NCBI GenBank assembly: GCA_039029455.1
Contig: JBCCGE010000001.1
Span: 90,136 to 154,135, forward strand
Origin: Pseudomonadota bacterium
GTDB lineage: Bacteria > Pseudomonadota > Gammaproteobacteria > Arenicellales > Poriferihabitantaceae
Direction of reading: 5' to 3'
Length of the DNA stretch: 64,000 bases
A model generated the notes under the pieces. The model did not search any database and had not been told where the DNA came from. It saw only the letters and a list, made by a program, of their open reading frames with translations. The first letter of the stretch is position 1. Each line of letters opens with the position of its first letter. Of the stretch, positions 3-42,987 are shown one piece after another. The position numbers and the translations under genes were made by a program.

Positions 3-137
3 AATCTGGTTCGGTACATCGAAGAAGGGTCGGTCAAACCCGTCCTGGCAGCGACTTACCCACTGGAACAGTTGCACGAGGCGCAGGCGGCATTTATTGA
101 GAAGAAACACACCGGCAATATCGTCGTCTGTCCGTGA
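3..137 (+). CDS. 3' end of a zinc-binding alcohol dehydrogenase/quinone oxidoreductase (MDR superfamily), truncated by window start
   Basis: Manual translation NLVRYIEEGSVKPVLAATYPLEQLHEAQAAFIEKKHTGNIVV matches the typical MDR C-terminus; TGA at 135-137 overlaps the next GTG start. Confidence 0.75.
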   Translation, partial: NLVRYIEEGSVKPVLAATYPLEQLHEAQAAFIEKKHTGNIVVCP

Positions 138-1249
138 AGATCACCCGGATTCGTGTCTACCAGACCGACCTGCCGTACGTAGGTGGCGCCTATGTTTGGG
201 GCGCGGGTAATGCAATTGAGGTAGCGCGGGCATCGGTTGTCGTCATCGATACTGACTCAGGTCTTCAGGGATGCGGCGAATTCACGCCATGTGGCGAAAA
301 TTACATGGTCGCTCATTCTGAGGGTGTGCCGGCTCTGGCAAGACTGGTGGCACCGCATCTGATCGGAGAAGATCCTCGTCAGGTGTATCGGATCGAGCGA
401 CTCATGGATCACAAGGTGCAGGGACACGGTTACGCAAAGGCACCGTTTGACGCCGCTTGCTGGGATATTCTGGGAAAAACTTCGGATCAGCCGGTGTGGA
501 TGATGCTGGGCGGAAAACTCACCCACGGTGCACCAATGTATCGGGTGGCACCGCAAAAGGCGACCGACGAAACCATCGAAGAAATGAGTCGATACCGGGA
601 ACAGGGATATCGGCAGTTTCAAATCAAAGTCGGTGCAGACTGGAGCGCAGATGTCGACCGCATCAGAGATACGGTAGCCCTGCTGCAGTCGGGTGAAAAA
701 GCAATGGCCGACGCCAATCAGGGCTGGCGGGTAGATAACGCTATTCGGGTAGCACGGTCAACACGGGATCTGGATTTCATCCTTGAGCAGCCCTGCCAGA
801 CCTATGAGGAATGTCAGCAGGTTCGACGCGTGGCCGAGCAGCCGATGAAGCTCGATGAATGTATTACCGGAATTCTCGCTGCTCAGCGCGTGGTTGCCGA
901 TCGCGGCGCTGAAATCTGCTGCCTGAAAATTTCCAACCTTGGCGGTCTCTCGAAGGCTCGCCGAGTCCGCGATTATCTGGTCGAAAATCGCATACCGGTG
1001 GTGAGTGAGGATACCTGGGGAGGAGAAATCACGACCTCAGTCGTCGCCCACTTTGCTGCATCGACACCTCAAGAGTATCTCCAGAATACGACTGACCTTA
1101 TGAACTACAACACGCGCTCAACCGGTGTTGGCGGACCGATCGTAAACAACGGCAAACTGTTCGCCACTGACACGCCGGGACTTGGTGTCGTGCCCGACTT
1201 TGAAAGCCTGGGAGATCCGGTGCTCTCATTTGGAACAATCGATGAATAA
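134..1249 (+). CDS. Enolase-superfamily enzyme (mandelate racemase/muconate lactonizing family), similar to hydroxyproline/proline-betaine epimerase-dehydratase subgroups
   Basis: FQIK catalytic Lys, metal ligands in DANQGW, EQPC and DE, KISNLGGL; N-terminal capping domain with AKAPFDAACWDILGK. Confidence 0.85.
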   Translation: MKITRIRVYQTDLPYVGGAYVWGAGNAIEVARASVVVIDTDSGLQGCGEFTPCGENYMVAHSEGVPALARLVAPHLIGEDPRQVYRIERLMDHKVQGHGYAKAPFDAACWDILGKTSDQPVWMMLGGKLTHGAPMYRVAPQKATDETIEEMSRYREQGYRQFQIKVGADWSADVDRIRDTVALLQSGEKAMADANQGWRVDNAIRVARSTRDLDFILEQPCQTYEECQQVRRVAEQPMKLDECITGILAAQRVVADRGAEICCLKISNLGGLSKARRVRDYLVENRIPVVSEDTWGGEITTSVVAHFAASTPQEYLQNTTDLMNYNTRSTGVGGPIVNNGKLFATDTPGLGVVPDFESLGDPVLSFGTIDE

Positions 1250-34095: not shown

Positions 34096-34851
34096 TCAGG
34101 CTGGTGCAGCCGGACCGGGAGGGCCTTTCGGACCAGAAAAACCTGGGTCGCCGCCCAAAATACCGGGCGTACCCTGAGCTCCGGGTTCTCCGACGGGTCC
34201 TGGAGGCCCGGGCTGAAACACTGTTGCTCCCGGAGGGCAGGCGACTCCGGGTGCGCCGGGGGGTCCCGGAAAACCGGGATCACCACCGGGACCTTTTGAG
34301 GCTGCCGTCGACCCGCTCGCACTTAGGTCGTCGCCAGGAATTCCCGGAGGTCCCGGAGGTCCTGGGGGGCCCGGAGGGGCGGCATTTGCACCTGTGTCGC
34401 CGGTAGGACCCCGAGCACCTATTTCGCCCTTTACGCCTGGAAACATTGGGTTTCCACCCACTCCCGGTTGACCGGGAGAGCCCGGAGGTCCCTGGGGTCC
34501 TGGGGAGCCGGTGCAAACCACAGGAGGTTCCGTGGTAGTGGTTGTTACGGTTGTTGTCGGTGCTGCCGTGGTGGTGGTACCGCCGCCGGGCTGACCACCA
34601 CCGCCGGTAGTCTGAGCGTGAGCGGGCAGGACAATCGAGGACACCAGAGGCTTGTTCCAGTGAAGTCCACTGGCGCCTGATGCACCCACCGCGATGATCG
34701 CGGACACCGTTTTTCTCCGACGGTTTGCGGACTCCTGCGGGCTAGGTACGATTTTGTGTGCAGATTGCGATGTGTCAGGAGACTCATTCGCATCTGCAGT
34801 TTTACCGGGATTCCTGATCTCGTCGTTATTGTTCCATTTTTCTTTACTCAT
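34096..34851 (-). CDS. Collagen-like protein 1: twin-arginine-like leader, Thr-rich linker, interrupted Gly-X-Y repeats
   Basis: RRRKTV...[15 protein letters not shown] leader; GSP GPQ GPP..., [27 protein letters not shown]; ATG 34851 chosen. Confidence 0.85.
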
Positions 34852-35017
34852 CTGTAAATCCTCACTTTGGGAACATCTTTGTCTCAAGAGGTTTCATTCT
34901 TATGCGTCAACTTCAGCTCGGGTCGCTGCATTGATGTATAGAATACGACGTTTTGATCATAGCACGATTGGGCGATAAGGTATGATTACGGCCCGATCGC
35001 AATGTGAAATTCGTACT

Positions 35018-35602
35018 ATGTATTCACAACCCCTGTTTCACAATTTCACCGGTGTGATACCCGATGCTGTGTGCGATATCATAGTTGCTGAAGGAGAGTC
35101 ACTGCAGCAACGCAAAGGCACGGTGTACTCTGACGATCAGTTCAAGGTCGACAAGTCCATGCGGGTGACTGATGTTGGATTCTGGGATGAGTGGCATTGG
35201 GTCAACGGATTGATGACGCACTACATGGCAATGGCCAACAGAAGTTTCTGGCAATACGAGCTGGTGGTATCTCAGGGGGTTCAATACGGGTCATACGGTG
35301 TTGGCCATTTTTACGATTGGCATCACGACACGTTTTCGGAACCTATGGTGGATTCCAGCAGTGGCAATCAAACACGGCTCAACCGGTTTTTGAGCGCGTC
35401 ATTGCTATTGTCCGATGAGAACACGTATTCAGGCGGTGAGCTCTGTTTCATGGATCAGGAGGGTCGGACCTACACTGTTGAAGGTGGCCGCACAAAGGGC
35501 AGCATTGTTGTCTTTCCGTCGTCACTGCGCCACAAGGTTACACCGGTAGACAACGGTACCAGGCATTCCTGTGTCTCATGGATTTTGGGGGTCGTAGACT
35601 GA
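35018..35602 (+). CDS. Fe(II)/2OG oxygenase, prolyl-4-hydroxylase/PKHD-like
   Basis: YDWHHD (HxD), YSGGEL, VFPSSLRHKVTPV..GTRHS.VSW; ATG 35018 chosen (track 34982). Confidence 0.85.
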   Translation: MYSQPLFHNFTGVIPDAVCDIIVAEGESLQQRKGTVYSDDQFKVDKSMRVTDVGFWDEWHWVNGLMTHYMAMANRSFWQYELVVSQGVQYGSYGVGHFYDWHHDTFSEPMVDSSSGNQTRLNRFLSASLLLSDENTYSGGELCFMDQEGRTYTVEGGRTKGSIVVFPSSLRHKVTPVDNGTRHSCVSWILGVVD

Positions 35603-35645: not shown

Positions 35646-37586
35646 TTGACTCAGCCGTTTACAACCTATGTCATTAATCGTGAGGATGCTCACGATCGGT
35701 GGCGTCGCATTGAGTCGGATCTGGGCGAGGTTGGAATTTACCCAACCCGAGTTAATGCGACCCTTGCAGAAAGCATCGATGACTCGTTCATGCGCGATGG
35801 TGAATGCTCCGTCATGCGGAAATGGCTGGATCCTTACACCGGGTTGTTGGTCAATACCGGCGAGATTGCCTGCTTATTGAGTCACCACAGTGTATGGCAG
35901 CAAATCGCAGCATCTGGAACAACCAGCATCGTTTTGGAGGACGATGCGTTGCTCGAAGCAGATTTTAATTCCAGACTGCAAGTCATAGGTCGCCTTCAAG
36001 AACAACACGATCTGGATCTGATCTATCTTGGATACAAACCACTGGGTCCGATCTCTGATCAGCGAGATGGACTTTGTGATCCGGGATACTGTTACTGGAC
36101 TGTGGGCTATATGCTGTCCCCAACCGGCGCGCGAAAACTGCTTGCTACGACCATCCTGAGAAACATACTGCCTGCCGATGAATTTTTGCCGGCGATGTTT
36201 AATCGGCACCCCAACGCACTCGTCCAGCATGTTTTCAAAGATTTTGAAAAACTGGGCGTTCGCGCTGCAGACCCGCCCATCGTACGACCTGACTTCCAGG
36301 TGGAAAGCCAGATCAGTACACAGCCGGAATACGTATATCATTTCATTGTACTGACGGTGGCCTCAGATCCTGACAAGGCTGCGTTGCTCACAGAATCACT
36401 GGATCGATTTTCAGTGCCGTATCGTGTTTTGGGATGCGGGCAGAGCTGGCGAGGCGGCGATATGACCGGCACCGGCGGCGGACAAAAAATAAATCTGCTC
36501 CGGGAAGCTCTGGGTGATCTTGACGACGACACGGTCGTGCTTTTTATGGACGGCTACGACACCCTGGTGAATGCGAACAGCGCATCGCTGCTGCGAATGT
36601 ATGCCAGATACGATCACGACATCGTGTTTGCGGCCGAAAAGTCCTGTTGGCCTGACGGTTCTCTCGCGAGTCAATATCCCGAGTCTCCCACCGAATATCG
36701 ATATCTGAATAGTGGGAGTTTTATCGGCAGCGCCGGTGCATTAAAAAAACTTGCGGCTGAATCCATAGACGACTCTGAGGACGATCAGCTCTACTTCACC
36801 AGAGCGTTTTTGAGTGGCGATCACGATATGGCCGTGGATATCGGTTGTAACCTCTTTCAAACACTGAGTTTTTCCGAAAACGATGTCATCCTGACGGGCC
36901 GCATCATCAAAAATATCATCACTGACACCCTACCTCTCGTGCTTCATGGTAATGGCGGTGAATCGTCCAAGCTGCGGTATCAGGAGATCGGAACCAAACT
37001 GCAGATTGCTGCTCATTATCCACTGTATACCGACCTCTACACCTATGAACGAGCGGCTAACCCTGAAAACATATGGTCAGTGCCATCGCCTGATATTCTC
37101 CAGCTAACATTCTGGACCGACGGATTTTGCCGCCTTCTGATTGAAACCGCAGAGTCTTTAGACGAATGGCAGTCCCTTCCTGGTGATAATGTTCCAGGCC
37201 AGGAGTTGCGGTTGCGGCGCATCAGCGAAAAGCTGTATCAAAATGTCGTTGCCCATTTCGAATGGCGTGTCGTTCCCTGGCTGCAGCAGCACTGGTTGCC
37301 GTATTCGTATTGCGGAATTAAAGATATATTTCTGATCAAATACTCCGCCAGCACTCAGGCTGAATTGGATCTTCACAACGATCGCGCGCACGTGAGTGCC
37401 TCCATCAAACTAAACGACCAGTATCGCGGAGGAGTGCTTGAGTTTCCGCGACAGCAGTTCACGAATCAAAACGTTCCTGTGGGATCGATGATCGTCTGGC
37501 CGTCTTCACTGACACATCCTCATCGATCAACCCCTGTCGAACAGGGCACAAAGTACAGTCTTACGTTCTGGACGCAAGAGCAGTGA
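35646..37586 (+). CDS. Fusion: GT25 (COLGALT-like) + PLOD-type glycosyltransferase + PLOD-type lysyl hydroxylase
   Basis: GEIACLLSH, LEDD, YWTVGYMLS..GARKLL, LPADEFLPAMF (GT25); WRGGDM..GGGQK, FMDGYD, AEKSCWP, YLNSG.FIG, DDQL (PLOD GT); HND...GG..F...THPH...G.KY (LH). Confidence 0.85.
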   Translation: MTQPFTTYVINREDAHDRWRRIESDLGEVGIYPTRVNATLAESIDDSFMRDGECSVMRKWLDPYTGLLVNTGEIACLLSHHSVWQQIAASGTTSIVLEDDALLEADFNSRLQVIGRLQEQHDLDLIYLGYKPLGPISDQRDGLCDPGYCYWTVGYMLSPTGARKLLATTILRNILPADEFLPAMFNRHPNALVQHVFKDFEKLGVRAADPPIVRPDFQVESQISTQPEYVYHFIVLTVASDPDKAALLTESLDRFSVPYRVLGCGQSWRGGDMTGTGGGQKINLLREALGDLDDDTVVLFMDGYDTLVNANSASLLRMYARYDHDIVFAAEKSCWPDGSLASQYPESPTEYRYLNSGSFIGSAGALKKLAAESIDDSEDDQLYFTRAFLSGDHDMAVDIGCNLFQTLSFSENDVILTGRIIKNIITDTLPLVLHGNGGESSKLRYQEIGTKLQIAAHYPLYTDLYTYERAANPENIWSVPSPDILQLTFWTDGFCRLLIETAESLDEWQSLPGDNVPGQELRLRRISEKLYQNVVAHFEWRVVPWLQQHWLPYSYCGIKDIFLIKYSASTQAELDLHNDRAHVSASIKLNDQYRGGVLEFPRQQFTNQNVPVGSMIVWPSSLTHPHRSTPVEQGTKYSLTFWTQEQ

Positions 37587-37883: not shown

Positions 37884-38381
37884 ATGGGGAATTCAAACAA
37901 CGGTAAAAAGGCGCTGTTGGGCGGGGGGCAGATTCAGCGTCGAAAAACCGTGACCGCAGTAGTCGGAACCGGCGCTGCTTTAGGCGTTGCCTGGAAAAAA
38001 CCGGTGGTGTCCACGGTAATCTTGCCCGCCCACGCTGCCACAACCGATTCCGGCGGAGATCCCGGCACAGGGGTGACTACGTTGCCACCGGTTACAACAA
38101 CGTTAGCGGTAACAACTTGTCCTCCCGGAGTCCCAGGTAATCCTGGGCCTCCCGGACCCCCGGGAATGCCTGGGGAGACTGGATCTCCGGGGGCGCCTGG
38201 AGCGCCCGGAGGACCCGGTGGACCGGGTTCACCCGGATTACCGGGCCCTCCCGGATCACCTGGTTCTCCACCGCCGGGCTTCCCTGATTGTCCGGCTGGA
38301 CCTCCAGGACCCGCTGGACCTCCCGGACCACCTGGTCCACCGGGACCGCCTGGGCCTCCAGGACCACCGATTACCGACTGA
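37884..38381 (+). CDS. Collagen-like protein 2: twin-arginine-like leader and GPP-rich repeats
   Basis: RRKTV...[15 protein letters not shown] leader; 16 + 8 uninterrupted Gly-X-Y triplets. Confidence 0.85.
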
Positions 38382-38392
38382 TCACTGATCGT

Positions 38393-38424
38393 AAACCGAG
38401 CCGCTCGGGTGGGCGGCTCGGTTT
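38393..38424. terminator. Hairpin between convergent collagen-2 and cyclase genes, probable bidirectional terminator
   Basis: Perfect 12-bp inverted repeat AAACCGAGCCGC / GCGGCTCGGTTT with 8-nt loop. Confidence 0.75.
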
Positions 38425-39834: not shown

Positions 39835-40387
39835 TATCTAATCCCGTTCAGAAACTGCAGGACTGCACAGTTCGCGAAGAATCAACCCTAAAATTCATTT
39901 TGCCCCACATCCCGAGGTAACCGACTTTACTGGCGTAGGGAATCATTCCCGGTTGCACACTGTAGTGCAACCCCCGTCAACCCGAAAGGTTTGTGATTAT
40001 GATCGCGATTAGATCGAAAAGTTTTGTCAATTTTATGTTTTGAACGGCCCGGTTCGGTCGATTTTTGAATCTAAGGAGACTGTTGGCAAAAAACCACTAT
40101 GGCTTTTCGAATGAAATTTGGTTTTATGCAATGCGTCGATACCCACATATGCCGGCACAGGTGTCATGAAAACATTCGCGCGAGCCATGTTGCACTCTTG
40201 ATTGTCGTATTGGCCGATTTGGTCAGTAAAGTTTCTAGAGTTGCCTACAACAATCCATTGAGTCGGATTACCAGTTATGCTGCGCCGTCTTTTCCGGTTC
40301 AAATAAATATGTCCCGGTTTTCTCAAAGATCGCCTCTCAAAAGGGCGCTATACTGCCCAGGCAAATCAAACAGTGAGGGCGAGACGA

Positions 40388-40867
40388 ATGAGTAAATCCA
40401 AAAGAACACTTCTTAAATCGGCATCGATCATGGGTGCCGGTGGGTTGGTTGCAAGCTGGCAGACGCCGGTGGTTCAGTCGGTTGTACTGCCGGCTCATGC
40501 ACAGACCACTGATCCGACAGCAACAACCACACCAGCACTGCCGGCGGCACCACTGGCTTTTTCACAGCAGGGGGCTATCTGCACCTCACTGTGTGCGATA
40601 GGCGTGGATGACGCGCAATACAATACACCGGTTCTGGAAAATCAGTCGGCTGAATCGATCACGGTTACAGGGATTCAGTTGTCGAATCCGGATCACTATG
40701 TTGAAACCATGCTGCCGCTCATGATTTCGAGCGCCGATAACGTCATTTGCGGATTCTCTATTCTGGTCAAAGATTCGGGAAATCTGTGCGGTGATGCCAT
40801 CTCTGGCGGGACTATGACATTGCAGCTCGAAGGCTATCAGGACTTTTCCTTCAATATCCCGGCTTAA
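40388..40867 (+). CDS. Hypothetical exported protein sharing the collagen-type leader
   Basis: KRTLLK...[18 protein letters not shown], Thr/Pro linker, four Cys, beta-rich body; ATG 40388 chosen. Confidence 0.75.
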   Translation: MSKSKRTLLKSASIMGAGGLVASWQTPVVQSVVLPAHAQTTDPTATTTPALPAAPLAFSQQGAICTSLCAIGVDDAQYNTPVLENQSAESITVTGIQLSNPDHYVETMLPLMISSADNVICGFSILVKDSGNLCGDAISGGTMTLQLEGYQDFSFNIPA

Positions 40868-41099: not shown

Positions 41100-41651
41100 T
41101 CAGGTACTTAGAACTCTTTTGAATGCCAGTTTAAAAAAATCCTGACTTGCCAGGTGGATGCAATCGATTTCCAATGGCTGAGTCAATTCAATACGAGTCT
41201 CTTCAGAACCTTCGTTTGCTGGGGTAAATCCGATAATTACTGGTTCTATTTGTACATTTCTTGGGTCGAGTGCTGGGTAGGTTGTGGTGACGCTTACGCT
41301 AAAAGACGCCGAATAGGTGCCCGACTCTGTAGTTACCTCGCCATCATAGGTACCCCCCAGACACCCCAACTGAGATACGGGCGTATTAAACACGCCCGAA
41401 AAATCCGATCGTAAGAACTCAACTGATGCATCGAGACCACTAAACCGGGGATCTCCGGCGATTGAAACCGCAACTGAGTACGATAATCCATCTGGCAGAG
41501 TCGTTTCATACACGGAATAGTTACAGAGAACATCCAAAGTAATACAGAGTGGCGTGAGTGCAGCGTGGGTGGGAAGCTGGATGGCTGCAACTATTGGAGG
41601 CGTCCATACAGAGATTGAAAGTGCTTTCGTGATTAGCCTTCGATCCATCAC
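41100..41651 (-). CDS. Hypothetical exported protein with a shortened version of the same leader
   Basis: DRRLITK...WTPPIVAAIQLPTHAALT; beta-rich Ser/Thr body with Cys. Confidence 0.7.
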   Translation of the reverse strand: MMDRRLITKALSISVWTPPIVAAIQLPTHAALTPLCITLDVLCNYSVYETTLPDGLSYSVAVSIAGDPRFSGLDASVEFLRSDFSGVFNTPVSQLGCLGGTYDGEVTTESGTYSASFSVSVTTTYPALDPRNVQIEPVIIGFTPANEGSEETRIELTQPLEIDCIHLASQDFFKLAFKRVLST

Positions 41652-41755: not shown

Positions 41756-41890
41756 CAGGCAAAATTGCCAGACCGGGCTGCTGATTACAGCTTCTCTATT
41801 TCTGCGACCAATGAAGACGCAATTCGTTCGGCCTGTAAGATGTAACCACCTCCGAACAAATTGGCGTGGTTGAGAATGTGGTAAAGCGTG
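41756..41890. repeat. Direct repeat copy 2 (functional 3' end of the fructosamine kinase gene plus downstream bases)
   Basis: Matches 40931-41065. Confidence 0.9.
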
Positions 41891-42684
41891 TACAGGTTTT
41901 TTCTCAACGGGTACCCTGCATCCGGCGGCCACTCTTTTTGATAAGCCTCGTAAAATTCAGCGCCGAATCCGCCAAACAGCTCCGTCATGGCAAGATCTGC
42001 CTCGCGATCGCCGTAATATACGGCCGGGTCGAATATGACTGGATTCTCGTTTTCATCTATGCCGTAGTTTCCTCCCCAAAGATCTCCGTGTAACAAACTC
42101 GGTTGGGGTCGATATTCAACGAACAGCTTGCCCATGATTTCTAGCAGACGATTGCCTGCGGTTTGCAGAGACGGTGAATTGATGCGAACCGCGGCCAGGC
42201 TGAGCTGATAGGCCAGTCGATTTCCGGAGAAAAACTGCAGCCAGTCATCGTGCCATGAATTGGGTTGGGGTGTTGCACCAATGTAATTGTCTCTGCCCCA
42301 GCCAAATTGAGCGGCGGTTGTGCGGTGCAATCGTGCCAACTGACCGCCGAGTTTGGACTGCCCGCCCGATGAGGATACGAACATAATATATTCGAGAACG
42401 ATGAAGGTGCATTCCCGGGTTTGTCCCGTACAGATGACTTCCGGCACCCGCACGGCGCCGGCGTCCTGCAGCGCTGCCAGCCCTTCCGCTTCACTTTCCA
42501 GCATGTCGAAACGGTTGGTATCGTCGACTTTCAGAAAATATTGTCGGGGACCACAGTTCACCGTAAATGCCGAGCTGATGCATCCTCCACCGGTTTCCTG
42601 GATCCGGTCTATCGAATGCGTTTTCCCTGTTGTATTTCCGATCCATTCCCCGATTTCCTGCAGACTTTCTTTCGATAGATGCAT
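41785..42684 (-). CDS. Fructosamine/ketosamine-3-kinase family protein
   Basis: GGGCIS, YFLK, LLHGDLWGGN, FDPAVYYGDREADLAM; ATG 42684 chosen. Confidence 0.9.
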   Translation of the reverse strand: MHLSKESLQEIGEWIGNTTGKTHSIDRIQETGGGCISSAFTVNCGPRQYFLKVDDTNRFDMLESEAEGLAALQDAGAVRVPEVICTGQTRECTFIVLEYIMFVSSSGGQSKLGGQLARLHRTTAAQFGWGRDNYIGATPQPNSWHDDWLQFFSGNRLAYQLSLAAVRINSPSLQTAGNRLLEIMGKLFVEYRPQPSLLHGDLWGGNYGIDENENPVIFDPAVYYGDREADLAMTELFGGFGAEFYEAYQKEWPPDAGYPLRKNLYTLYHILNHANLFGGGYILQAERIASSLVAEIEKL

Positions 42685-42987
42685 TGTTATGTATTCGATA
42701 TACCGGATTGAGCCAGTCAAGCATAGTAAAGGGTGCTGGATCAGATTGTCGATTCGCCGTCACAATAACCTGCAGCGTTCACAAAGAAGCGATTGATCGG
42801 GGGTTCACGGTAAAATTTAGTTGGGCACCGTCAACGTGATGGTTATCTCGTGGCGTTCAGTCTTTCCGGAGAAACTGGTTTTTGGACGCAAATTCAATCA
42901 TCGGTTGCCGTCGGTAAATCCCGGTGCTGGATTGTTCGAATTTGGGTGTGTCGAGCAGAGTACTTTATATATACAGGTAAGAGAAAA

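Follow-up and report, generated by a model that had tools for sequence, protein, structure and literature searches.

We analysed a window of 64,000 nucleotides from a bacterium of the Poriferihabitantaceae (Gammaproteobacteria; contig JBCCGE010000001.1, positions 90,136 to 154,135) and found in it one open reading frame (ORF) for a protein of 646 amino acids (35646..37586, + strand, TTG start, stop included), in which a GT25 glycosyltransferase domain like that of human COLGALT1, a GT_PLOD glycosyltransferase domain like that of human LH3/PLOD3 and a lysyl hydroxylase (LH) domain follow one another. With a probability of roughly 0.7, this protein is a soluble, trifunctional enzyme of the cytoplasm, by which collagen-like proteins have their lysines modified ahead of export. 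We hold with good confidence that it hydroxylates and glycosylates lysines of collagen-like proteins, and we put the chance that its product is exactly glucosyl-galactosyl-hydroxylysine (Glc-Gal-Hyl) a little short of even. The window carries a chromosomal bacterial copy of this fused form, whose neighbours are genes of small leader-bearing collagens. The only sequencing run containing this DNA is labelled 'marine metagenome'.

Domains of the 646-residue protein

The ORF is a single uninterrupted frame, and its TTG start comes directly after a TAA. This start is probably the right one, because the alignment with the best homolog, P0002 (49% identity), begins at about residue 5 and because no in-frame ATG, GTG or TTG occurs within at least the next 24 codons that we read after it. 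No clear Shine-Dalgarno sequence was seen upstream of the TTG. A first-pass annotation, made from the letters alone, had described the protein as a fusion of COLGALT-like, PLOD-GT-like and lysyl-hydroxylase-like domains, and a residue check of the translation located all of the motifs that it had quoted: GEIAC at 72, LEDD at 97, LGYKP at 128, CYWT at 149 and ADEF at 177 in the N-terminal third; WRGGD at 268, GGGQK at 277, FMDGYD at 300, CWP at 334, YLNSG at 353, DDSEDDQL at 375 and HGNGG at 434 in the middle; and LHND at 576, THPH at 623 and GTKY at 634 in the C-terminal part.

Three Pfam families matched the protein: Glyco_transf_25 (PF01755) at residues 6-115 (E 9e-18, 65.4 bits against a cut-off of 24), GT_PLOD (PF25342) at residues 233-445 (E 3e-60, 204 bits against a cut-off of 27), and 2OG-FeII_Oxy_3, a family of 2-oxoglutarate (2OG) and Fe(II)-dependent oxygenases, at residues 572-643 (E 5e-8). 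All three exceeded the curated cut-offs and are therefore far beyond chance. The match to PF01755 covered profile positions 3-110 of 199 only, that is, the N-terminal half of the model. The accessory (AC) domain family of PLOD proteins, PF25238, was not reported in the Pfam scan of the protein, and GT_PLOD is joined to the LH domain by a short linker of about 25 residues (447-470), modelled with low confidence at 457-462; the AC domain is thus missing, as the first-pass annotation had suspected.

The GT25 domain (residues 1-225, 35646..36320, + strand) was assigned to the catalytic (GT2, or CGT) type of COLGALT1 by Pfam, PDB sequence match, residue mapping and fold. When all PDB sequences were searched, the N-terminal domain matched the catalytic half of COLGALT1 with E-values of 1e-25 to 1e-26 and 97 bits, and the bacterial GT25 beta-1,4-galactosyltransferase 8xlz with only 19.5 bits. 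Residues were mapped to COLGALT1 and LH3 with numbering offsets verified at several landmarks. The COLGALT1 residues whose mutations abolish activity, E435, D437, C412, W495 and D522 (PMC12003778), correspond here to E98, D100, C76, W151 and D178, respectively. The acceptor cleft for 'Hyl-Gly' in COLGALT1, formed by K470, Y494 and E523, and the ligands of UDP, D436 and R354 (PMC12987934), are represented by K131, Y150 and E179, and by D99 and R18. Accordingly, E98-D99-D100 is the EDD motif for Mn and UDP, D178 is the counterpart of the catalytic base D522, and Y150-W151 belongs to the acceptor cleft; G72 is kept along with C76. Two stand-alone bacterial GT25 proteins, P0223 (251 aa, from Actinoallomurus sp.) and P0227, share about 40% identity with the N-terminal domain and retain the EDD and P-A-D-E motifs and even the G-S-D-T-E lid motif of the animal type, so that COLGALT-type GT25 enzymes may be more widespread in bacteria than the label 'LPS' (lipopolysaccharide) implies.

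The GT_PLOD domain (residues 232-446, 36339..36983, + strand) was assigned to the glucosyltransferase type of LH3 and mimivirus R699 by Pfam, PDB match, residues and fold; among PDB sequences it matched human LH3 with an E-value of 6e-45, in a match that takes in the GT as well as the LH part of LH3, and R699 with 2e-35. Residues W75, K89, D112, Y114, D115, E141, W145, N165, D190, D191 and H253 of LH3 are all kept, as W268, K281, D302-x-Y304-D305, E331, W335, N355, D379-D380 and H434. Hence the Mn2+ site D112/D115/H253 of LH3 is represented by D302/D305/H434, the uridine-stacking pair W75/Y114 by W268/Y304, the pair D190/D191 by D379/D380, and W145 by W335.

The C-terminal domain (residues 466-646, 37041..37583, + strand) is of the lysyl-hydroxylase type of 2OG/Fe(II) oxygenases, as judged from Pfam, PDB match, residues, fold and a tree of LH domains. 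Its best match among PDB sequences was the LH domain of mimivirus L230 (E-values of 1.6e-9 and 1.5e-8), and the LH domain of LH3 was matched with an E-value of 1.5e-5. H577/D579/H626 stand in the places of the Fe(II) triad H667/D669/H719 of LH3, and Y566 in that of Y656. In PLOD enzymes, the activity of the LH domain depends on tail-to-tail dimers.

The predicted structure pointed in the same direction. An AlphaFold2 monomer model, made from 44 sequences, had a mean pLDDT of 91 and a pTM of 0.75, and its only segment below 50 pLDDT was the linker at 457-462. In a Foldseek comparison with the PDB, full-length LH3 ranked first (E 2e-33). The individual domains superposed closely on their counterparts: the GT domain of LH3 (TMt 0.86, 2.2 Å), R699 (1.5-1.7 Å), COLGALT1 (1.7-2.3 Å over about 220 columns) and the LH domain of L230 (TMt 0.79, 2.1 Å). 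Prolyl 4-hydroxylases (3itq, 5c5t) scored lower (E about 4e-7), and the bacterial GT25 beta-1,4-galactosyltransferases 8xkd and 8xlz were found at E 3e-9 only, with a root-mean-square deviation of about 9 Å. Among viral models, the best match was an unnamed protein of 610 aa, followed by a Megavirus 'procollagen-lysine 5-dioxygenase'. The three domain assignments of the first-pass annotation are upheld by sequence, by the mapping onto residues defined by mutagenesis in the human enzymes, and by the predicted fold.

Most of the catalytic and ligand-binding residues that we checked are conserved. In an alignment with 16 three-domain homologs of 32-49% identity, C76, E98, D100, D178, D302, D305, H434, H577, D579, H626 and K636 were invariant in all 16, and D99 was kept in at least 90% of them. 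The enzyme should be cytoplasmic, because a signal peptide is absent and the first Rossmann-like fold starts, with strand beta1, as early as residue 6.

Gene neighbourhood and relatives

The three-domain ORF lies between two genes of collagen-like proteins, which are the only two that a Pfam Collagen search detected in the whole assembly (3.7 Mb, 203 contigs, 91% complete); a GT_PLOD search of the same assembly detected the three-domain ORF alone. Collagen-like protein 1 (34096..34887, - strand; first in-frame ATG at 34851) is transcribed divergently and has a long RR-containing leader, a Thr-rich stalk and three Lys-Gly sites (GVKG, SKG and GPKG), which make it the likeliest candidate for the Lys substrate. 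Collagen-like protein 2 (37884..38381, + strand) starts 297 nt downstream of the three-domain ORF and has a leader of the same type; its helix is without Lys and very rich in Gly-X-Pro triplets (21 overlapping G-x-P-G matches), and it is a candidate substrate for Pro hydroxylation rather than for Lys modification. The gene 43 nt upstream of the three-domain ORF (34982..35602, + strand) encodes a small 2OG-Fe(II) oxygenase of 206 aa, a candidate prolyl hydroxylase that probably acts on prolines of both collagen-like proteins.

The leader of both collagen-like proteins reads RR-K-T-V ... W-x-x-P-x-V ... L-P-A-H-A. It is shared by four small ORFs, namely those of the two collagen-like proteins (34096-34887, -, and 37884-38381, +) and two that are non-collagen and without a Pfam match (40373-40867, +, and 41100-41651, -), with an invariant W..P.V....LP.HA..T behind a basic RR/KR stretch. 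This leader may be a signal of the twin-arginine translocation (Tat) type or a lineage-specific export signal. TatC is encoded in the genome; export of the collagen-like proteins by Tat is a conjecture.

Promoter-like sites in the scan were not above the shuffled expectation. Terminator-like sites numbered 12, as compared with 4.5 in shuffles, and just one of them, a weak site at 38405-38421 after the gene of collagen-like protein 2, is placed to mark the end of an operon; the scan thus says little. The neighbours that we scanned include genes for a fatty-acid hydroxylase, an adenylate cyclase, an MscS channel, TauD, a trypsin-like protease, a fructosamine kinase and a glutathione S-transferase. 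A prophage origin of the locus was considered and rejected: these flanking genes are ordinary chromosomal ones with no phage structural genes among them, and the LH tree described below places the protein with bacterial copies and not in the phage-context clade.

Two further genes of the window may be mentioned here. The ORF 134-1249 (+) is similar to cis-3-hydroxy-L-proline dehydratase, with a score of 407 bits for NCBIfam NF043002 that falls short of the cut-off of 500, and this hints at hydroxyproline catabolism about 34 kb from the putative cluster for hydroxylation of collagen prolines and lysines. The fructosamine kinase family protein (41785-42720, -; E 7e-101) is encoded about 4 kb from the three-domain gene; fructosamine kinases are a class of enzymes that repair glycated lysines, and the presence of one near a lysine-glycosylating enzyme is probably a coincidence.

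The linkage to collagen-like genes recurs in relatives. We examined twelve contexts, this window included, and collagen-like proteins with Lys-Gly sites adjoin the enzyme in 11 of them (10 of the 11 outside this window). GT_PLOD was found in 5 of 31 related genomes. In two of these genomes, which belong to one genus (G002 and G014), a gene of about 480 codons for GT25-GT_PLOD overlaps a separate gene for an LH protein of 199 aa. This LH protein shares 40-43% identity with the fused LH domain across 183 residues (E 4e-50), and next to it are encoded one or two collagen-like proteins, which have 7-8 G-x-K-G sites. The C-terminus of these collagen-like proteins, judged by eye, looks like a trimeric-autotransporter (YadA-like) anchor. 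At the two split loci (L009, 11086-11685 (-) and 9644-11644 (-); L010, 11111-11710 (-) and 9573-11162 (-)), the separate LH gene overlaps the start of the GT25-GT_PLOD gene, which is the reverse of the domain order in the fusion. The gene of P0002, which has the same three domains and is carried by an 865-kb contig (G010; L008/L017), stands alone amid insertion sequence and transposase genes and a restriction-modification system, and these surroundings suggest gene mobility.

More distant three-domain homologs are encoded on phage-like marine contigs (L012/L013, L014, L015/L016, L023 and L024), each of which has a collagen-like ORF with Lys-Gly sites a few kb from the three-domain gene. The Gly-X-Y (GXY) runs of these ORFs reach 63 triplets, with up to 27 G-x-K-G sites, whereas L014 and L024 have short runs only. 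In most of the phage contexts, including those of S-PRM1 and CRP-6 below, the collagen-like ORFs abound in G-x-K-G. L012/L013 and L015/L016 also carry small 2OG-FeII_Oxy_3 genes, whose products are about 34% identical to the 206-aa protein of the window. Full-length homologs are present in cultured phages as well, in Synechococcus phages S-PRM1, S-CAM9 and S-8S53/55/56 and in Roseobacter phage CRP-6, where they are annotated as 'hypothetical' or '2OG-Fe(II) oxygenase'; the phage family PHROG 61 matched the three-domain protein with an E-value of 2e-81. In S-PRM1 the enzyme, gp162, follows gp158, with 59 GXY triplets and 23 G-x-K-G sites, and in CRP-6 the enzyme, gp58, follows the 'tail fiber' gp60, with 99 triplets and 26 G-x-K-G sites. 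A nucleotide-sugar epimerase gene of S-PRM1 (L025, 12437-13228), about 3.6 kb downstream of the three-domain gene, could supply UDP-galactose (UDP-Gal) during infection.

The three-domain architecture is not unique to the gene of the window. An exhaustive HMMER search of 1.84 billion representatives returned 309 clusters at E <= 1e-30, and the best 150 of these 309 included several dozen proteins of 600-700 aa matched end to end. Clusters at 50% identity that share the architecture number in the dozens, and most of them are of marine and phage origin. The family also includes forms of about 417 aa with GT_PLOD and LH, and forms of 850-1100 aa. The long forms (P0016, P0023, P0042, P0097, P0104 and others) combine GT25 and GT_PLOD with further families, of which PF25238 and PF13704 were recorded in P0016.

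In a quick maximum-likelihood tree of LH domains (133 rows, SH-aLRT support), the protein of the window grouped with P0002, P0076 and the separate LH of the related genus, together with four further sequences (support 93), and this group nested in a clade of 28 rows (support 96). A separate clade of 37 rows (support 96) held 6 of the 7 sequences of known phage context, and the animal PLODs formed a clade of their own. By this tree, the gene of the window belongs to a bacterial sub-lineage with both fused and split arrangements and is not an obvious recent import from a phage. The long forms branched outside the long-branched clade of the 600-700-aa forms, while the short proteins P0108, P0109, P0119, P0146 and P0148 (about 417-434 aa), which have GT_PLOD and LH without GT25 or AC, nested among the three-domain sequences.

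Proposed reactions and rival explanations

In the proposed order of steps, the LH domain, using Fe2+, 2OG and O2, would act on collagen-like chains that are still unfolded and turn the Lys of X-Lys-Gly into 5-hydroxylysine. The GT25 domain, expected to be Mn2+-dependent and inverting with D178 as the base, would then transfer a first hexose onto Hyl, most likely beta-galactose from UDP-Gal, with its Y150-W151/K131/E179 cleft reading 'Hyl-Gly'. The GT_PLOD domain, expected to be Mn2+-dependent and retaining with D302/D305/H434 as its metal site, would attach the second hexose, for which alpha-1,2-glucose, donated by UDP-Glc, is the likeliest candidate. All three steps would take place in the cytoplasm, before the collagen-like chains leave the cell by a route that the leader may define. 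We infer that collagen-like proteins with X-Lys-Gly are the substrate because of the gene context here and in 10 of the 11 other contexts, and the sugars and the order of steps are proposed in the same conditional sense.

Several observations weigh against this scheme. Sequence does not tell which donor sugars the enzyme would use, and mimivirus L230 is reported to attach glucose to Hyl directly. Near the donor-sugar site of the GT_PLOD domain, V80 and W92 of LH3 are replaced by M273 and L284. In the GT25 domain, the lid loop S569-D570-T571-E572 of COLGALT1 is only partly conserved (S222-Q-I-S), with Ile in place of T571, and the lid salt bridge R351-D570 is lost, as A15 and Q223 occupy the positions of its partners; in human COLGALT1 this bridge orders the lid loop, and the D570A mutant is inactive (PMC12003778). 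In the LH domain, the ligand of the 2OG C5-carboxylate, R729 of LH3, is replaced by K636, which follows the distal His at an unchanged distance (+10), and the separate LH of the related genus has Arg at this position. Lys here is a trait of the clade and not a sign of decay, because K636 is invariant in the 16 three-domain homologs. The last two points concern context: the local collagen-like proteins offer three Lys-Gly sites only, none of them in collagen-like protein 2, and the closest homolog, P0002, has no collagen gene within 10 kb.

The loss of the salt bridge speaks for the possibility that one domain of the three is without catalytic activity and serves as a scaffold, like GT1 of COLGALT1 or the accessory domain of LH3; this could be a GT25 domain crippled in its lid, and the protein would then carry out one or two steps only. 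Degenerate GT-A domains do occur in animal enzymes of this pathway (PMC12003778). However, all three domains keep their metal, UDP, base and acceptor residues, and the invariance of the core metal and base residues in homologs as distant as 32-49% identity argues for purifying selection on catalysis. Moreover, P0002 likewise has Q at the position of D570, which varies among members of the family, and the change therefore looks like a lineage-specific solution for the lid. We consider an idle domain quite improbable.

Somewhat greater, though still low, is the chance that the substrates are of the same class and the sugars or linkages are other ones, with glucose placed directly on Hyl, or a first hexose other than Gal, instead of Glc-alpha1,2-Gal-beta-Hyl. 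LH3-type GT domains accept several UDP-sugars, and the product of L230 is Glc-Hyl. The replacements of V80 and W92 and the altered lid loop, which in COLGALT1 contacts the donor beta-phosphate, would fit such a change, and the galactose moiety is not resolved in the structure of the COLGALT1 catalytic site (PMC12003778), so that there are no Gal-specifying residues to compare. Against this stands the pairing in one chain of a COLGALT1-type domain, with its Hyl-Gly cleft and base intact, and a domain of the type of LH3 and R699, of which R699 is a proven Gal-Hyl glucosyltransferase (PMC9546862, PMC12279948); Gal followed by Glc is the simplest reading of this pair. Very unlikely, in turn, is an enzyme without a collagen acceptor, that is, a glycosyltransferase for lipopolysaccharide, lipooligosaccharide (LOS) or another glycan fused to an unrelated hydroxylase. 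The names point that way, since Pfam calls PF01755 'LPS biosynthesis protein' and the JGI annotation of homologs is 'GR25 family glycosyltransferase involved in LPS biosynthesis', but the GT25 match is limited to half of the Pfam model, and the bacterial GT25 galactosyltransferases are as remote in score (19.5 versus 97 bits) as in fold (about 9 Å versus 1.7-2.3 Å). The neighbouring ORFs that we scanned showed no genes for polysaccharide synthesis, and collagen-like genes are the recurrent neighbours. We rejected the LPS/LOS reading on score, fold and gene context; the grouping with LPS/LOS glycosyltransferases that the first-pass annotation had named as evidence against its own proposal was not found.

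The stepwise modification of collagen-like lysines in the cytoplasm thus remains our preferred explanation. A more far-reaching version of it would hold that one cytoplasmic polypeptide enables bacteria and marine phages to furnish collagen-like proteins with the authentic Glc-Gal-hydroxylysine of animals, that the products are exported here through the RR-containing leader, possibly by Tat, as folded triple helices, that this compact lineage of prokaryotes and phages is an independent, perhaps ancestral, branch of PLOD and COLGALT, and that the gene could serve as a ready one-gene tool for the production of recombinant collagen, hydroxylated and glycosylated, in E. coli. Taken as a whole, this version is doubtful.

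Comparison with known collagen-modifying systems

Prokaryotic collagens are described as mostly neither hydroxylated nor glycosylated (PMC8968730), and Iyer et al. 2010 (PMC2938197) predicted that bacterial dioxygenases hydroxylate collagen-like proteins, with sulfation, not glycosylation, as the step that follows. In our literature search, we found hydroxylysine with the Glc-Gal disaccharide described for animal and giant-virus collagens only, and came across no account of a GT25-GT_PLOD-LH fusion from bacteria or phages. Since a gene with all three modules sits between the only two collagen-like genes detected in this assembly, the 'animal' chemistry of collagen lysines probably also runs in bacteria and marine phages. 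If so, the hydroxylation of collagen Lys and the glycosylation of Hyl would extend to prokaryotes, through a one-chain enzyme whose gene adjoins those of its likely substrates in a bacterium and is common in cultured marine phages; this would bear on the origin of the animal PLOD and COLGALT enzymes and would explain a large phage family annotated as 'hypothetical' or '2OG oxygenase' (PHROG 61). It would also provide a single soluble, signal-peptide-free gene for Hyl-glycosylated recombinant collagen, the production of which in bacterial hosts at present needs several animal or mimivirus enzymes.

The protein is not a member of the full-length PLOD1-3 or COLGALT1/2 families, because it is without AC, without GT1 and without targeting to the endoplasmic reticulum (ER), and because its domain order is different. 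In PLOD1-3 the order is GT-AC-LH, whereas here GT_PLOD joins LH through the linker alone. COLGALT1/2 consist of GT1 and GT2 and are targeted to the ER, whereas here a GT2-type domain stands alone, with no signal peptide. With human LH3 (PDB 6fxk, 6wfv, 8zgc) the protein shares a GT_PLOD domain of about 33% identity, the DxxD and His of the Mn2+ site, the uridine-stacking Trp and Tyr, the poly-Asp pair and the HxD...H triad of the LH domain, and both domains superpose at about 2 Å. Unlike LH3, it lacks the AC domain and the ER signal peptide, has GT25 fused at its N-terminus, carries Lys in place of Arg729, has lost V80 and W92, and is predicted to be cytoplasmic in a bacterial host. With the GT2/CGT domain of human COLGALT1, or GLT25D1 (PDB 9evj, 9u7h, 8zgc), it shares about 31-32% identity and the EDD motif, C412, K470, the YW pair, D522 and E523. 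In contrast to COLGALT1, it has no non-catalytic N-terminal GT1 domain and does not keep the STDE lid-loop motif and its R351 partner. Moreover, COLGALT1 assembles with LH3 as a separate protein, whereas here GT25 is fused in cis to the enzymes of the next and the previous step of the pathway.

Mimivirus L230 (LH and GT), R699 and the GT25 proteins of giant viruses are likewise collagen-modifying enzymes from outside animals, but giant viruses distribute these activities among several genes, and R699 has retained an AC domain (PMC12279948), in contrast to the one bacterial chain of 646 aa without AC described here. The uncharacterised phage and bacterial homologs (S-PRM1 gp162, S-CAM9, S-8S53/55/56, CRP-6 gp58, PHROG 61) are alike in their three domains, being 32-36% identical across more than 90% of the length, and in their linkage to collagen-like proteins and small 2OG oxygenases; the candidate substrates differ, being small leader-bearing secreted collagens here, and tail fibres or autotransporter adhesins in the relatives. 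In its predicted function, the protein resembles the human LH3-COLGALT1 complex and the L230/R699 set of mimivirus.

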